Source: Candidatus Heimdallarchaeota archaeon (GTDB lineage: Archaea > Asgardarchaeota > Heimdallarchaeia > Heimdallarchaeales > Heimdallarchaeaceae). From it: a DNA stretch of 64,000 nt. The stretch is from positions 280,976 to 344,975 of the forward strand of contig JAUVXV010000004.1 in the NCBI GenBank assembly GCA_030603365.1. The letters are read 5' to 3'. The notes beneath the pieces were generated by a model, which saw only the letters and a list, made by a program, of their open reading frames with translations, ran no database searches and was not told where the DNA came from. The position numbers were made by a program, and so were the translations under genes. The first letter of the stretch is position 1, and the number at the start of each line of letters is the position of its first letter. Of this stretch, positions 58,437-64,000 are shown one piece after another.

Positions 58437-59375
58437 TTGAAATTGATAAAAGCAGTTCTTGTACTGAAAACTTCCGGTTCCTGTAGATACTATAGAATCT
58501 ACGATGAAACATGGGGAACAGAGGAGAAGAATGTAGAAGTGATTAGTTACATAACTGCAGTAACTTCAATTATAGGGGAATTCGGAGAAAGCTCTCCTAA
58601 ATTAATTGAGTTTGGTAATAATGAAATTGTATGTGAAACTAAAGGAGATTATATTCTTACTCTTGTTAAAGAAAAGGGTACTTATGAATCGTTAGTAGGT
58701 AGAGTCAAGAAGAATTTCAAAGATAATTTTCAACCTTTAGAAATAATAAAAGAAAGTAATCCATGGATTGAAGATGAAGAATTTCTTGTAAAAGAAAGAG
58801 AAGGAATCTACCATTTTATGAGAAATTTAAATCTAATAATCAATAGAAAAACAATTCTTTCTGGTAAGAAGATAATTAAGAAAGATGATGATGATTCATT
58901 AGAAAGACCTCTTGTCATTCAAGATGTAGATTTGCTTATTGTATTGGAAACTGGACAGCCTGTATTTTTAATGCTAACCCTTTCTTTGCCTTATGATGCT
59001 ACTCTTATCACTGCTTTTATGTCAGCTGTGTTGGATTTGGGTAAATCCATAGGGTTAGGAGAGTTGAAGACACTTGAGAGCGAAAATATAATTGTTTATG
59101 TACAAAAAATCGAGAAAGCATTTACAGTAGTTATAACACAGAAAAAAGAGCATAGGGCAGCTTATAAAAGATTTGCAAGTTTTGTAGCAGACTTGTGTAA
59201 TAATTGGTTATATAGAGAAGGAATAGAAATAGATGAAGCTTTTCAGATCTTTGAAGAAAGAAAGCATTTTGAAGAAATCCTTAAACTATTGATAGATACT
59301 GATACTTGGGAGAAACATCTTATCAAAGAATGGGAGAGAGAATATGCTGAAGAGATGAGCATAGAAAATAGTTAA
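58437..59375 (+). CDS. Tandem longin-like domain protein
   Basis: Two repeats of hydrophobic strand-(S/T)G ... (L/V)Ixx(Y/F)xxAV ... (L/P)KxIE pattern. Confidence 0.65.
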   Translation: MKLIKAVLVLKTSGSCRYYRIYDETWGTEEKNVEVISYITAVTSIIGEFGESSPKLIEFGNNEIVCETKGDYILTLVKEKGTYESLVGRVKKNFKDNFQPLEIIKESNPWIEDEEFLVKEREGIYHFMRNLNLIINRKTILSGKKIIKKDDDDSLERPLVIQDVDLLIVLETGQPVFLMLTLSLPYDATLITAFMSAVLDLGKSIGLGELKTLESENIIVYVQKIEKAFTVVITQKKEHRAAYKRFASFVADLCNNWLYREGIEIDEAFQIFEERKHFEEILKLLIDTDTWEKHLIKEWEREYAEEMSIENS

Positions 59376-59425
59376 CATTAAATATGCATTCTAGCAATTA
59401 TGTAATTGTTAGAGGGAACATACTG

Positions 59426-59840
59426 ATGGTAAAACTAAGGTTTGCTTTTCTAGTTTCATTATTATTTGTGATAAATCCAAATATAAACAGTGTTGTACAA
59501 TCTGAATTGGTTAAAAGTTCAGTTATAAAAAATCCAGAACTTAATCCAATTGTACACGCTCCTTCTTTTAATACTTCAATAGAGATCTTTAACGATAATG
59601 ATTTTCTAAATTATAGTCTAGAGGGGAACGGAACATCAATTGCACCATATGTAATTGATAATTTCAGTATTGAAACAACTAATATAACTGGTATATATAT
59701 AACAAATACAACTAAGTATTTCATAATCAGAGACGGATATGTAGAAGCTCATGAGTATGGTATAAGAATTTCCGATGTTCTAGAAAACACTTCACAAATT
59801 GTGAATGTAACATGTTTTAGCAATTATAATGGGGCAACAG
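59426..59840 (+). pseudogene. N-terminal part of a secreted right-handed beta-helix (NosD/PbH1-like) protein interrupted by the IS607 element
   Basis: Signal peptide; GNGTSIAPYVI...GIYITNTTKYFII pattern; breaks into higher-GC sequence after NYNGAT. Confidence 0.8.
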
Positions 59841-59907
59841 GAAACGCACGTTATGAAACTTGGTTAAACTTGCCAGAGGGCGTCTAACCGTCGTTTAAGT
59901 GGGCCCC

Positions 59908-61836
59908 CTACACGTGCGATGAGGGGAAGGAATCAGAAGGAAGGAGAGTACCTGGAAGGGAAGCAATATTTTGGGCAGCATTATCATGAGTGTTGACCTG
60001 TTGACCACACTTCTTGCAGGAAGCAACATCATACTGACCAGGACCACGAGCGAGGACACCTCCACACCCAGAATGAAGGGTACTAGTATGATAGGGGAGA
60101 ACAGTTTCTAACTGGACATCATACCCTAATTCCAGAGAAGCTAACCAGACAGCCTTCTTGTAAATGAGCAAACTATCGGGCATGGTGTAAATAGCTTTAG
60201 CTAAGGCGCCTTTAGTACCAGTAGGATCTGTTGTTAAGCGTTCAATCTTCAGTACTTGGCACTGTTTTTTCACCAGTACTGCAGCTAGAAAGTGAGGGAG
60301 AAGACGAGTAATCTCTCGAAGAATCCTGCTACGACGAGTATAGACTCTATTGAGCTCCCCTTTGAGTTTGCAACACCCATGAGCATCATATGCTTTTCTC
60401 TTACGAAGTAAGCCTTGAGTAAGTTCAGGGAGAACTGTATCTGTGAGGTGGGTATAGTGGTCTACTAAGTGGAGCAAATCCTGAGGGAGAGGTACAGAGG
60501 TGTTGAATGCCACCATATACTCCCCTAACCGATTAATATCTACTCCAAGAATCAAACTCTTGTTTCTAGGTATTCTGGGCAGATAGCTGTGGAGAAGAGT
60601 AGAGGAATGGAAACAACCATGTGTTCCTTCTAGTACTACATCCACTCGAGGTTTGTAACTAGGAGCTTGTCCACTACTTACTTGGAAGAGTTTGATGCGA
60701 GCACCATTGTGTAGATACTCTCCTACTTTCTTTGGAACATGAACTTGAGCAGTCACTCTTTTCTTACCTTGCTTTGGAAAACCTAGCTCGGTCCATCCTT
60801 GGTTCTTTACTTGGTCAGTCAATTCTTGTGCATTCCCTTGACGGGTGATAACATAGTTTTTTTTCATGAGTAATTTTATTGGTAATCTTCCTTGCTTTTT
60901 TCGTTTAAATGGTGGGGGAACAACTTTTTCTGGGGAGAGACCTTTGACTAACTGAGGGACACTCTGCATGTAATGATCAAAGAGTGTGAAAACTAGTAAC
61001 TGTCTAACAGCTGAAAAGAGTTTTCGTGAAGGCTTTCCTATCAATTTTGCTAGTTGTTCTGAGAGATTCTTGAGACTTTTCCACCGAGAAGGGTGAGAGC
61101 TGTTGATCCACGAAGTAAGGTAAGGGACAACAGTAGTTTGTTCTTTCTTTAAGAGCTTGAGCTTCTTTAGAAATGTCTGTTGATTCTTTGTAAGGTTAGG
61201 GATAAGAGAAAATTCGTTAGTATAGTAAAATATTGTGTCGTCTAGAGCTTGGAGGACCTCATGTTGTGTAGTAGAAGGGAGAGCGGCATTAAATTGTAAG
61301 AAACCTGTGAAATAGGTGGTCTTGTACTTTTTTCTCCAATAAGAGTCTGCTTGCCATCTCGTATGTGTAAGAAGATTGATGATATATCTTCGTTTTAGTT
61401 TCCAATAGTTTTCTAGACTTCGTTCGGTATAAGGCGAGCGACCAAATATCATCCATTCTAGCAGTTGTTGAGGGTTCTTCAAGAGAAAGTTGAACAACCC
61501 TTGCACTTTCTGCTCTTTGTCGATTTTTCCCTTGACAGCTATATACAACCAATGAAACGCACTTTCAGCTATATTTGGACTTTGTCCCACCTTCTTGCAA
61601 AGTTGGCGGACGAAGAACCCTTCTTTAGGGTTTGTTCTATAAAGATCCACTGCTTGTTGGATCACTTTGGGGGTGAGTAGCAGTTCTTGCTGTTCTTCTA
61701 GCGTTCTTATTCTCTCATTGATTTCTTCTCGTTGGGGTTGGTCTACACACTTAAATACCACTTGATAACTCCTCATCACCGTTCTTGAACTAAGAAGAGG
61801 GGGGACTTGTGGTTTACTTGATGTTTGTGTGCCCAA
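59908..61836 (-). CDS. tnpB: Large TnpB RNA-guided RuvC nuclease (642 aa)
   Basis: RuvC-I ILGVDIN, RuvC-II KIERL, TSTLHSGCG...CKKCG Zn finger, RuvC-III HDNAAQNI. Confidence 0.85.
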   Translation of the reverse strand: MGTQTSSKPQVPPLLSSRTVMRSYQVVFKCVDQPQREEINERIRTLEEQQELLLTPKVIQQAVDLYRTNPKEGFFVRQLCKKVGQSPNIAESAFHWLYIAVKGKIDKEQKVQGLFNFLLKNPQQLLEWMIFGRSPYTERSLENYWKLKRRYIINLLTHTRWQADSYWRKKYKTTYFTGFLQFNAALPSTTQHEVLQALDDTIFYYTNEFSLIPNLTKNQQTFLKKLKLLKKEQTTVVPYLTSWINSSHPSRWKSLKNLSEQLAKLIGKPSRKLFSAVRQLLVFTLFDHYMQSVPQLVKGLSPEKVVPPPFKRKKQGRLPIKLLMKKNYVITRQGNAQELTDQVKNQGWTELGFPKQGKKRVTAQVHVPKKVGEYLHNGARIKLFQVSSGQAPSYKPRVDVVLEGTHGCFHSSTLLHSYLPRIPRNKSLILGVDINRLGEYMVAFNTSVPLPQDLLHLVDHYTHLTDTVLPELTQGLLRKRKAYDAHGCCKLKGELNRVYTRRSRILREITRLLPHFLAAVLVKKQCQVLKIERLTTDPTGTKGALAKAIYTMPDSLLIYKKAVWLASLELGYDVQLETVLPYHTSTLHSGCGGVLARGPGQYDVASCKKCGQQVNTHDNAAQNIASLPGTLLPSDSFPSSHV

Positions 61837-61865
61837 TGTATCTCAGTATATAATCCGCAAAATGC

Positions 61866-61873
61866 TATTTAAA
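61866..61873 (-). promoter_or_regulatory. Putative archaeal TATA box for tnpB
   Basis: TTTAAATA on the minus strand, ~30 nt upstream of the tnpB TTG, in the tnpA-tnpB gap. Confidence 0.35.
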
Positions 61874-61884
61874 CGCGTAGAAAA

Positions 61885-62478
61885 TCACCCGGAAGGAGGA
61901 GGCTTTTTCCCTCTCCGTTGTCGATGGAGCCTTTCCGCAAACGAGGTGACGAGAGCAATCATATCTTCTACCAATTTTCTTTCATCTGAATTATGCTCTG
62001 TTTGGTGGATCGAAACAATTTCCGTTTCAAATGTTTGGCAATAGTGACGTATCACTTTTGTTCCAAATCTTGCTAATCTATCTTCATACGTACACAGGAT
62101 GGCAAAGGGATGACTAGAAGCTACTTCTTTCAAGAGTAGGTGTAAACCTTTTCGCTGTTCATTCATCCCTGAAGCAATGTCTGAAAAAATGTTCTTAAGT
62201 ACCCACCCTTGCTGGTGAGCAAAGGTTCTCAGTTGTTCTTGTTGTCTTAGTAGTTCGTTCTTTTGTTTGGTTGCACTCACCCGAGCATACCCTATCACCA
62301 TCTTCGCAGGTTGTTGTCTTCCTTGTTCCTTCTTTCCCACTAGGTGAGCTAGTGTATACCTTCTGTGTCCTCCCAATGTTCTCCTCGCCGTTTCTACCTT
62401 CTGTTCCTTTTCCCATCTCCTCAAGGTGCTAGTCGAGACTCCTTTCAGTTTTGCAGCAATTCCAATTCTTACCAACAT
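61885..62478 (-). CDS. tnpA: IS607 serine recombinase TnpA (MerR-like HTH + resolvase)
   Basis: GVSTSTLRRWE, GGHRRY, YARVS, DIASG, EDRLARFG, LVEDMIALVTSF. Confidence 0.95.
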   Translation of the reverse strand: MLVRIGIAAKLKGVSTSTLRRWEKEQKVETARRTLGGHRRYTLAHLVGKKEQGRQQPAKMVIGYARVSATKQKNELLRQQEQLRTFAHQQGWVLKNIFSDIASGMNEQRKGLHLLLKEVASSHPFAILCTYEDRLARFGTKVIRHYCQTFETEIVSIHQTEHNSDERKLVEDMIALVTSFAERLHRQRRGKKPPPSG

Positions 62479-62564
62479 GTTTTTCTTCCTATCTTTTCTC
62501 TGATAAGTTTTTCTTGTCTGCTCTATCCTCTTCTGGCAAGATTGGGTAACTTTTCATCCCTCAG

Positions 62565-63073
62565 TGGACGACGGTTGGGGTAATGTGACATATAACTTAT
62601 TTCAAAATAATACCTACTATGCTATAATAGTTGATAATGGTGATTATCTAAACATACATCATAATAGGTTCATTGATAATAATCTAAGTAAGCTTTTTGG
62701 AGATTCTCAAGCAGTTGATAGAGAATCAGACAATAACTTGTGGTATGACCCCATTTCAAAGGAGGGGAATCATTGGAGCGATCATCAATCAGGAAAACCA
62801 TATAAGATAGGTGAGGGAAGTGCAGTTGATAGGTATCCGCTTGATTCAAATATGGTTAGAATACCTAGAAATTGGACAGAGTTAATTATTGGAATTGTTT
62901 TAGGAACATCATTGGTGGCGGTGCTTGCTTGGATGGCTTACCCTAAAATTGAAGCAAGAAGACAAATAGCTAAGAAAAGGCAGCAACGAAGAAAAAGAGC
63001 TGCCATTCAACTAGATTATGATAAAATGGTTGATGAAGAAATTCAAAAAGCAAGAGAAAAAATATTACTTTGA
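62565..63073 (+). pseudogene. C-terminal part of the interrupted beta-helix membrane-anchored protein
   Basis: IHHNRFIDNN...SQAVD...GNHWSD...DRYPL, then a TM helix and basic tail; same frame as the N-terminal part. Confidence 0.8.
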
Positions 63074-63091
63074 AAAGTAGAAAATTGAAAA

Positions 63092-63221
63092 TGGTGAGCC
63101 TGGCCGGATTTGAACCGGCGACCGACAGATTGCTCCACGAGAAATACTCGTATAAGAGTCTGCTGCTTTAGGCGTTTGCTGATACCTCAGTTCAAACTCT
63201 ACCTAACTGAGCCACAGGCCC
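63092..63221 (-). tRNA. tRNA-Lys(CUU) with two introns (31 nt in the D-arm at 22/23; 22 nt canonical at 37/38)
   Basis: Exons 63221-63199, 63167-63153 and 63130-63092 give a 77-nt cloverleaf with CCA; both junctions form bulge-helix-bulge motifs. Confidence 0.92.
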
Positions 63222-63289
63222 ACCTTTTATTGTTCTCAGCTGTTCTTACCTAATAATTCTTTCATATAAAACTTTCTTTTATAACCTAA

Positions 63290-64000
63290 GATTTTAAGTT
63301 GAGTTTAAAAGAGTTAAAGCTTGATTAATTCTTGAAGATATCGTTTGATTAATTGTATCATATCTATATTTACTTTTTCGTAAGTTTCACATTACCTCAA
63401 GAATTATACTTTTCTTCTTTTCATTTTGAGGATGTCTTGCAATTCCATTTGTTAAAATATCTTCAAGGTGAACGAATTTGTTATTTTTAGAGTCATACCA
63501 AAGAAAAGAATTAATATTGAAAATAAATCGTTCATTATTGTAGATCAGTTCTTCAAATGCAATGTATTCTTTTGAAATATCTCTTAATTTTCTACTTAGA
63601 AATCTAATTCATTCATTAGTAGATTGTGTATGGCTTATAGGAAGAATCATATAAAACTTCGAGAAAAACTTGTTCTCAGAATCTTGGTTAGTTTAAGTTG
63701 GCTAGTTTTTAGATAGATTATTTACAAAATGAAGAATAATCTGAGTAACTATCTTTTTTTTTGCAAAATAGTGGAGCTAGCTCAATTCTTTAATCTTTTC
63801 ATTGAGAGATGATCGAAATGAAGAACATCACTAGCTCCTGACGATTCTACCAAGTACTTATATTAAAATTTTATTTCAAATATTGAGCCACTCAAAGTAT
63901 TTGTTTTCAAATTTTCTCAAACTTGGCAATATATATTCTGGTTCTTTTTATAGCTATTTCTCACTGTATACTTGGCTACTTCTAGTAGCACAATAATTGA
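63290..64000 (-). pseudogene. Possible decayed gene remnant
   Basis: Protein-like stretches (NERFIFNINSFLWYDSKNNKFVHLEDILTNGIARHPQ) broken by many stops; no ORF of 60 aa or more. Confidence 0.3.

Follow-up and report, generated by a model that had tools for sequence, protein, structure and literature searches.

A probable omegaRNA-type scaffold at the right end of an IS607-type element encoding a TnpB-like protein in a Heimdallarchaeota genome

In the present work, we examine an insertion element of the IS607 type on the minus strand of a 64,000-nucleotide stretch of DNA (the window) from Candidatus Heimdallarchaeota archaeon. The window is taken from contig JAUVXV010000004.1 (C14 in our numbering) of a 17-contig, 3.65-Mb assembly. 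Homologues of its proteins carry the labels Candidatus Heimdallarchaeota or Heimdallarchaeaceae, and a tRNA close by has introns, which places the organism among the Asgard archaea. Cas12 and the eukaryotic Fanzor nucleases descend from TnpB-omegaRNA systems, and to our knowledge the characterised IS607-type examples of TnpB are all bacterial. We will argue that the last ca 100 nucleotides (nt) of the element (59844 to about 59945, minus strand) are probably the 3' scaffold of an omegaRNA, also called reRNA, that serves the element's own TnpB-like protein, with a proposed role in homing. The system is of a known kind, and the element is an uncharacterised Asgard variant of IS607. The locus contains the following features, among them a candidate transposon-adjacent motif (TAM).

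59844 to 62570, minus strand: IS607-type element; its left end begins CGTCCACTG and its right end finishes ACGTGCGT.
61885 to 62478, minus strand: tnpA, a 197-aa IS607-family serine recombinase (NCBIfam NF033518; Pfam MerR and Resolvase).
61864 to 61873, minus strand: TATA-like box TTTAAATAGC, conserved upstream of tnpB (14 copies aligned), with the same motif in gene-less copies.
59908 to 61836, minus strand: tnpB-like gene of 642 aa, with RuvC residues D433, E532 and H617 and a zinc finger of H588, C591, C607 and C610.
62571 to 62575, minus strand: ACCGT, the target motif in host DNA and a candidate TAM, immediately next to the left end; from left-end junctions and uninserted orthologous sites.
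59824 to 59843, minus strand: predicted guide UUCCUGUUGCCCCAUUAUAA; from the divergence of the flanks directly after ...GCGT in all copies.
62532 to 62540, minus strand: left-end subterminal motif CTTGCCAGA, an inverted copy of TCTGGCAAG (59877-59869) at the right end; from a repeat search and left-end alignments.

The limits of the element were set by homology among the three copies in its own genome and dozens of copies in the genus, together with empty sites in relatives, and are ambiguous by the CGT common to both junctions. TnpA scores 167.5 bits against NF033518, the IS607 transposase equivalog (cut-off 110), and consists of an N-terminal MerR-type helix-turn-helix (PF00376) and a serine recombinase domain (PF00239). 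In keeping with the IS607 type, the termini are unrelated to each other, with neither terminal inverted repeats nor a target-site duplication, only CGT is common to the junctions, and a subterminal inverted motif of 12 nt is present. The GG core of IS607 is lacking, the right end reading ...GCGT and the target ACCGT or ACTGT. Judged by these sequences, the recombination core lies inside CGT, which makes the element a variant of the IS607 type.

The same genome holds two further full copies at 71-74% identity. It also holds five short matches to the right end only (88-93% identity), with no tnpB upstream. The short copies are gene-less mini-elements (miniature inverted-repeat transposable elements, MITEs) bearing both ends, and they form two families.

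C15:200737-201095, C7 end, C6 start, C3 end and C2 end: family-1 mini-copies, ca 360 nt long and 96-99% alike; several contigs are broken by copies of this C15 type.
C1:432503-432900 and C1:52010-52300: family-2 mini-copies (C1a and C1b), ca 300-400 nt long.

Both families are laid out as left end, TATA-like box, a segment that we call module A, and right-end scaffold, and the C15-type left end equals that of the window element over the first 17 nt. The family is found in all 24 other genomes of the genus, as copies with tnpA and tnpB, as tnpA-deleted copies and as many mini-elements.

At the right end, homology stops at ...CATAACGTGCGT in 59 copies, and the flanks diverge immediately after it and are mutually unrelated. 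The last shared base in the window is 59844, where the terminus reads ...ACGUGCGU or ...AACGTGCGT (ending ...GCGT). Since the copy homology ends there, the guide is predicted to start at 59843 (UUCCUGUUGCCCC... or UUCCUGUUGCC...), and by analogy with known systems it would be 16-20 nt long. The guide 20-mer is unique in the genome, with no second match at up to two mismatches. The arrangement is thus that of an omegaRNA or reRNA, in which a conserved scaffold overlaps the 3' end of tnpB and stops at the right end, where a variable guide begins.

The structure of the scaffold was analysed in two alignments that draw on 25 genomes of the genus, one made with MAFFT (A2, 59 copies, which leaves out the false member L016:3563-3674) and one fitted to a model (A3, 63 copies). 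The following helices were considered.

59905 to 59926, minus strand: hairpin Pa, CCCCUCA (59926-20) with UG(U)AGGGG (59912-05), spanning the tnpB stop codon; from RNAalifold.
59913 to 59918, minus strand: 5' arm of P1, CGCACG, inside the loop of Pa.
59845 to 59850, minus strand: 3' arm of P1, CGUGCG, scaffold positions -7 to -2, adjoining the guide.
59862 to 59889, minus strand: P2, GGUUAGAC (59889-82) with GUUUAACC (59869-62), capped by P3; compensatory and G-U changes.
59881-79 and 59874-72, minus strand: P3, GCC with GGC; variants ACC/GGU, GCU/AGC, ACU/AGU and AUU/AAU.
59856 to 59896, minus strand: closing helix P1b, AAAC (59896-93) with GUUU (59859-56); invariant, and as such neither supported nor refuted.

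In P1, 99.2% of the alignment cells are paired, and both sides have changed in 4 of the 6 pairs, with compensatory changes on both sides in at least five independent lineages. The pair types are CG 52-56, UA 5 and AU 1; GC 44-48, AU 8 and GU 6; AU 57-61 and UA 1; and GC 56-60 and AU 2. None of 500 shuffles reached the observed values, and a slid partner gives only 13-43% pairing. Pa is paired in 98% of cells, with one change from A-U to G-C, and was also predicted independently by RNAalifold, which on its own recovers Pa, P1b and P2. The homology of the MITEs starts at the 5' arm of Pa. Pa and P1 together would give a pseudoknot of the H type, with scaffold -7 to -2 as its 3' strand, and a helix backed by covariation thus lies next to the guide, as in an omegaRNA. 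P2 shows changes from UA to CG and from AU to GC, an alternation of GU, AU and GC, and many wobbles, while P3 was read from the inner segments, its register being left unfixed by the covariance-model realignment. G-U intermediates are frequent in both P1 and P2 and would be A-C on the opposite strand, which means that the constraint acts on the tnpB-sense RNA.

These results can be compared with the stems drawn in an earlier first-pass annotation, made from the letters of the window. The strings that it quoted are indeed found at their positions, CGCACGT (59918-59912) and ACGTGCG (59851-59845) being exact reverse complements of each other; this outer stem held up across the copies, in the form CGCACG/CGUGCG. 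The copies do not bear out its second stem, AGGGGGC (59909-03) with GCCCTCT (59881-75), which in the window can pair with one G-U. Here only five pairs, AGGGG with CYUYU, are compatible, solely via C/U changes opposite an invariant G, and the final two pairs do not form in 52 and 23 of the 59 copies. The stem also competes with Pa and P3, its 3' arm overlapping the covarying GCC/GGC hairpin. A third element, the hairpin UUAAAC-GACG-GUUAG, consists of three invariant pairs and is incompatible with the covarying P2.

Separately, one copy (L044; G004:C43:475-855) has the loop of Pa inverted, with CACGTGCGTTG in place of CAACGCACGTG, and the pseudoknot pairing is lost. This is probably an inversion across the hairpin stem. 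It was also noted that ACGACGGUU at the right end (59886-59894) is, in the window copy, the exact complement of the left-end junction AACCGUCGU (AACCGU joined to CGU; 62568-62576). Only the 5-nt core ACGGU/ACCGU of this match is conserved in other copies, and the G-to-A variants of the ACGGU core do not follow ACTGT targets (2 of 11 against 1 of 16), so that the idea of an anti-TAM is unproven.

We now consider the left end. At some 30 independent left-end junctions the sequence is N-ACCGT (or ACTGT), and 5-6 variable bases separate it from ACTG...AATCTTGCC. The left end of the window element starts at 62570 with CGTCCACTG... (62570-62562), which is conserved in MITEs and other copies. Two uninserted orthologous sites were found. 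The C15 mini-element lies between ...TTGGAACCGT and TCTAATAC..., and its counterpart in G018 (C365) has ...TTGGAACCGT joined to CCTAATAC..., with the motif ACCGT. Likewise, C1a lies between ...ACACCGT and GGTAAAGAGCAATGAAACC..., and its counterpart in G023 (C132) has ...GTACCAT joined to TTGAAGAACAATGAAACC..., with the motif ACCAT. Because the motif is present at these uninserted sites (as ACCAT in G023), ACCGT is the target, that is, host sequence. An empty site for C1b was also searched for and was not found, the intergenic flank being too diverged.

The empty allele of the window element is predicted to be ...CCAACCGT joined to TTCCTGTTGCCCC, or in longer form ...CATTACCCCAACCGT joined to TTCCTGTTGCCCC..., with the right side also written TTCCTGTTG... 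or TTCCTGTTGCCCCATTATAA. This join leaves the host frame open (..GATGNGWGNVTY..). As far as the sequences go, a candidate TAM therefore stands in the left-end flank, and TAM and guide match would be rejoined at the empty site. The left-end flank and the end of the element on the right have the same base at -3: a flank of ACCGT is combined with ...GCGT, and one of ACTGT with a ...GTGT end in 11 of 11 GTGTGT copies (L003, L096-L099, L104-L106, L108, L109 and L110, the last at -3 only). A recombination core of CG or TG, with -3 inside it, would agree with this and would be the analogue of the IS607 GG core. On the basis of the C/C and T/T matches, CG (-3,-2) is favoured as the crossover dinucleotide; the type C copies, L030 and L013 agree with neither CG nor GT. 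Exceptions to the -3 match are the ...GCAT copies, with the flank ACTGT, and a copy without a left end.

As a separate observation, one orthologous copy (L111/L112 with L031/L055; G013:C102 and G010:C133) has only tnpB and no left end that could be recognised. The 9-bp direct repeat CGCTTAGTA stands on either side of it, the last bases of its right end are CGC, and its flank on the left reads ACCGC.

The TnpB-like protein, whose gene ends with a TAG stop codon at 59910-59908, is recognised by sequence models only in its C-terminal zinc-ribbon and RuvC-III part, with scores below the curated thresholds (PF07282, 24.2 bits for a cut-off of 26.3; guided_TnpB, 19 for 100; IS607_TnpB, 14 for 350). 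The AlphaFold2 model, with a mean confidence (pLDDT) of 86.5, has the predicted fold of TnpB and Cas12, with a split RuvC domain and the zinc finger. Foldseek matches it at a probability of 1.0 to Cas12f, the TnpB proteins of ISFba1 and ISDra2, other Cas12 types and Fanzor2, at template-modelling (TM) scores of only 0.3-0.44. D433 (in GVDIN), E532 (in KIE) and H617 are invariant in 28 homologues. H617 aligns with the catalytic Asp of Cas12f and TnpB (NADYNAA), while the neighbouring D618 is not conserved. It is a small family, for which 277 representatives were counted at E up to 0.001 out of 1.84 billion, and all of its named members are Asgard.

Among Asgard proteins there are also four of 1200-1800 aa (P0144, P0148, P0174 and P0175, from Thor-, Hod-, Odin- and Hermodarchaeota) that contain this TnpB-like region, one of them annotated with an AbrB/MazE-type antitoxin domain. 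They may be fused or exapted forms. The tnpB start codon varies between TTG, ATG and GTG among copies and lies ca 28 nt past the conserved TTTAAATA box (window 61836-61880), a spacing that suggests a short-leader or leaderless tnpB message.

A second constrained segment is found inside tnpB, 1.1 kb upstream of the right-end scaffold.

60947 to 60987, minus strand: module A, a hairpin ACACUCU/AGAGUGU followed by CCCUCAGUUAGU.

In 14 of 14 full copies, the 7-bp hairpin ends exactly before CCCUCAGU. All mini-element families share TGTCCCTCAGT(T/A)AGT with the tnpB interior (60961-60946), and hold the hairpin and the motif (7-8 bp, then CCCUCAGUWAGU) with four other stem sequences. Third-codon identity is 0.83-0.89 at module A and 0.88-0.90 at the right end, compared to ca 0.5-0.65 elsewhere. 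Synonymous sites are held as tightly at module A as at the right end. In every gene-less mini-copy, module A, of which five different stem sequences occur, stands only ca 75-95 nt ahead of the right-end scaffold. It is conceivable, and we put this forward with considerable doubt, that the guide-RNA scaffold of this Asgard TnpB family is bipartite, with module A as its second part. If so, the two modules of full-length elements would have to be brought together, whether through long-range folding, through processing or in trans, in a tracrRNA-like manner, and the RNA would stand halfway between the single omegaRNA and the dual-RNA guides that Cas12 uses. Module A could alternatively be a cis-element of its own, serving regulation or TnpA, for instance.

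Two further observations concern this region. A second covarying hairpin lies near 61012-60995, the constrained stretch being 60947-61030 (minus strand). In the window copy, UCCCUCAGU of module A (60951-60959) is the exact complement of ACUGAGGGA in the left end (62557-62565), of which only the 5-nt core UCAGU/ACUGA is conserved in other copies.

Taken together, these features suggest how the element may work. By analogy with known systems, transcription would proceed from the TATA-like box at 61873-61864, which presumably acts as the promoter, with the scaffold forming the 3' end of the tnpB message, and the transcript would then be processed. Pa would fold, its loop would pair with the last nucleotides before the flank to give the pseudoknot P1, with the P2/P3 hairpin beside it, and the RNA would run on into host DNA to take up the guide UUCCUGUUGCCCC... 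from 59843. TnpA would insert the element beside ACYGT, with a short core inside CGT common with the right end. Precise excision would rejoin ...ACCGT to TTCCTGTTG... and so recreate the TAM with its guide match. The complex of TnpB and RNA would recognise the rejoined site, with TnpB reading the TAM, and probably cut it, whereupon repair would restore the element. The occupied site would be spared, as its guide match is preceded by ...GUGCGU and not by the TAM (UGCGU compared to ACCGU at -5/-4).

Several results weigh against this assignment. The minimum free energy of the 151 nt from 59815 to 59965, folded as a single sequence, has a z-score of only -1.14, with 24 of 200 shuffles folding equally well, and the structure obtained differs from the first-pass drawing. 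Since the single-sequence fold is no better than chance, the support must come from the comparison across copies. An Rfam cmscan of 59000-63500 with E up to 1 gave only a tRNA and chance matches, with no omegaRNA or RAGATH-18. RNAalifold on 280 nt of the tnpB-linked copies found no convincing helix upstream of Pa. The type C copies, with a right end ...GCAT and a left flank ACTGT, break the simple shared-core rule. The protein has D-E-H in place of the D-E-D triad, the canonical RuvC-III Asp being His. Finally, part of the right-end conservation (TCTGGCAAG and TTTCAT) is mirrored in the left end and probably serves TnpA, perhaps rather than the RNA.

The last two of these points each lead to a different explanation. 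If the right end were a mere set of DNA sites for TnpA, the stems would be by-products of repeated binding motifs and there would be no functional RNA. The ends of IS607 indeed carry subterminal repeats that are bound by its TnpA (PMC6188088), the inverted motifs CTTGCCAGA/TCTGGCAAG, which are probable TnpA binding sites by their sequence and position, and ATGAAA (left)/TTTCAT (right) are common to both ends here, and MITEs would need their ends for mobilisation in any case. However, the compensatory changes in P1, P2 and P3 pass through strand-specific G-U intermediates, P1 has no counterpart in the left end, and the MITEs also retain the promoter-like box and module A. We therefore consider this explanation very improbable. 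That gene-less MITEs keep both the promoter-like box and the scaffold speaks for a functional RNA.

If, on the other hand, scaffold and guide are real, the D-E-H protein might bind without cutting, as a repressor similar to TldR or Cas12m or as a targeting factor, so that the empty site would be marked or blocked. The replacement of the RuvC-III catalytic Asp by His throughout the family is in line with this, and inactivated derivatives of TnpB are known (PMC10691335). Yet homologues as distant as 42% identity still have D433, E532 and H617 without exception, the TnpB family moves, occurs in many copies and is linked to a transposase, and Altae-Tran et al. regard conserved D-to-H branches as active (PMC10691335). 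A non-cutting protein is in our view rather unlikely, although less so than a mere set of DNA sites.

The exact model of the first-pass annotation placed the end of the element at 59838 (...UUUCCUG), the guide at UUGCCCCAUUAUAAUUG (from UUGCCCC), the TAM at TCCACTG and the empty site at CCACTG joined to TTGCCCC. In its favour, CAG/CTG occurs near both junctions, and this join also keeps the host frame open. The copies contradict it at each of these positions: homology stops at 59844, TTCCTG is flank and occurs in no other copy, and the predicted guide starts 6 nt earlier. TCCACTG lies within the conserved left end CGTCCACTG, the motif being ACCGT at 62575-62571, and in the two empty sites ACC(G/A)T is followed at once by the right flank. 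This version is hardly tenable. Its general reading, with an omegaRNA-type scaffold at an IS607-type right end, a guide read from the flank and a TAM in the opposite flank, is on the other hand supported by the covariation, the sharp boundary between scaffold and flank, the protein with a TnpB fold and the two empty sites. We accordingly prefer the scaffold of a homing omegaRNA. From it follows a concrete construct, in which the 642-aa protein is combined with the TAM ACCGT, a scaffold of ca 100-230 nt and a 16-20-nt guide. The family is abundant and restricted to Asgard, with an oversized D-E-H TnpB, and its ends and target motif (ACYGT) are defined by the analysis, together with the position where the guide begins and a scaffold backed by covariation.

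The element interrupts a plus-strand gene for a beta-helix protein, whose open reading frame is split into halves at 59384-59887 and 62564-63073, and the annotation thus gains corrected limits for an insertion that splits a beta-helix surface-protein gene. The host gene (59384-59843 and 62577-63073, plus strand) encodes a secreted, membrane-anchored beta-helix repeat protein. Its orthologue in G023 has 489 aa, with ca 170 extra repeat residues between the halves, which reflects a loss here or a gain there, and most relatives have no beta-helix host gene at the corresponding locus. The host frame was considered as a guide to the empty site and rejected, as both joins are in frame and the G023 orthologue is ca 170 aa longer. 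Beyond the gene lies a 127-nt tRNA at 63092-63221 (minus strand; 42 bits in Rfam) that ARAGORN misses and that presumably contains introns.

The closest relatives in organisation are the IStron CboIStron, with TnpA_S and TnpB (10.1101/2023.11.20.567912), and ISXfa1 (10.1101/2023.08.09.552727). There as here, a serine-recombinase TnpA is encoded upstream of tnpB, the scaffold overlaps the 3' end of tnpB and stops at the right end, and the guide comes from the flank. The TAM is the target of TnpA at the left-end flank, the right-end terminus copies its last bases, and excision would rejoin TAM and target. The differences are that the target and TAM here are ACYGT with a core inside CGT, compared to (T)GGG with a GG core, and that the protein has 642 aa and D-E-H, compared to ca 400 aa and D-E-D. 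It also reaches only 14 bits where IS607_TnpB requires 350; there is no match to Rfam or RAGATH-18 and no group I intron, and the host is an Asgard archaeon.

In the omegaRNA of ISDra2 (PDB 8H1J; PMC10097598), the nucleotides before the guide also pair with a distal upstream segment, and the scaffold also overlaps the 3' end of tnpB. There the pairing joins -5 to -3 with -103 to -105, and the guide RNAs of Cas12 have that pseudoknot as well (PMC10097598). In the present case, the partner strand of the pseudoknot is located within a hairpin loop, the hairpin itself spanning the stop codon. ISDra2 belongs to IS200/IS605, with a Y1 transposase, single-stranded DNA hairpin ends and the TAM TTGAT, and there is no sequence similarity.

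As for the protein, His takes the place of the RuvC-III Asp also in TnpB branches with a rearranged RuvC-III (RIIIr-4, RIIIr-6 and the archaeal Ser-6; PMC10691335), some of which occur almost only in archaea and are associated with serine recombinases. D-to-H replacements in RuvC-III have been catalogued there, some of them in archaea-only, serine-recombinase-linked branches, and are presumed to be active (PMC10691335). RIIIr-4 is without a zinc finger, whereas the Asgard family keeps an H-C-C-C finger and could be mapped to no named branch. That study gives no guide RNA, TAM or ends for the family. The mini-copies, finally, resemble the PATE-like mini-elements of IS200/IS605, short non-autonomous copies that keep both ends and the scaffold and have their own flank-derived guides. 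Here they are derived from IS607 and carry in addition the TATA-like box and module A, which in the full-length element lies 1.1 kb away inside tnpB.

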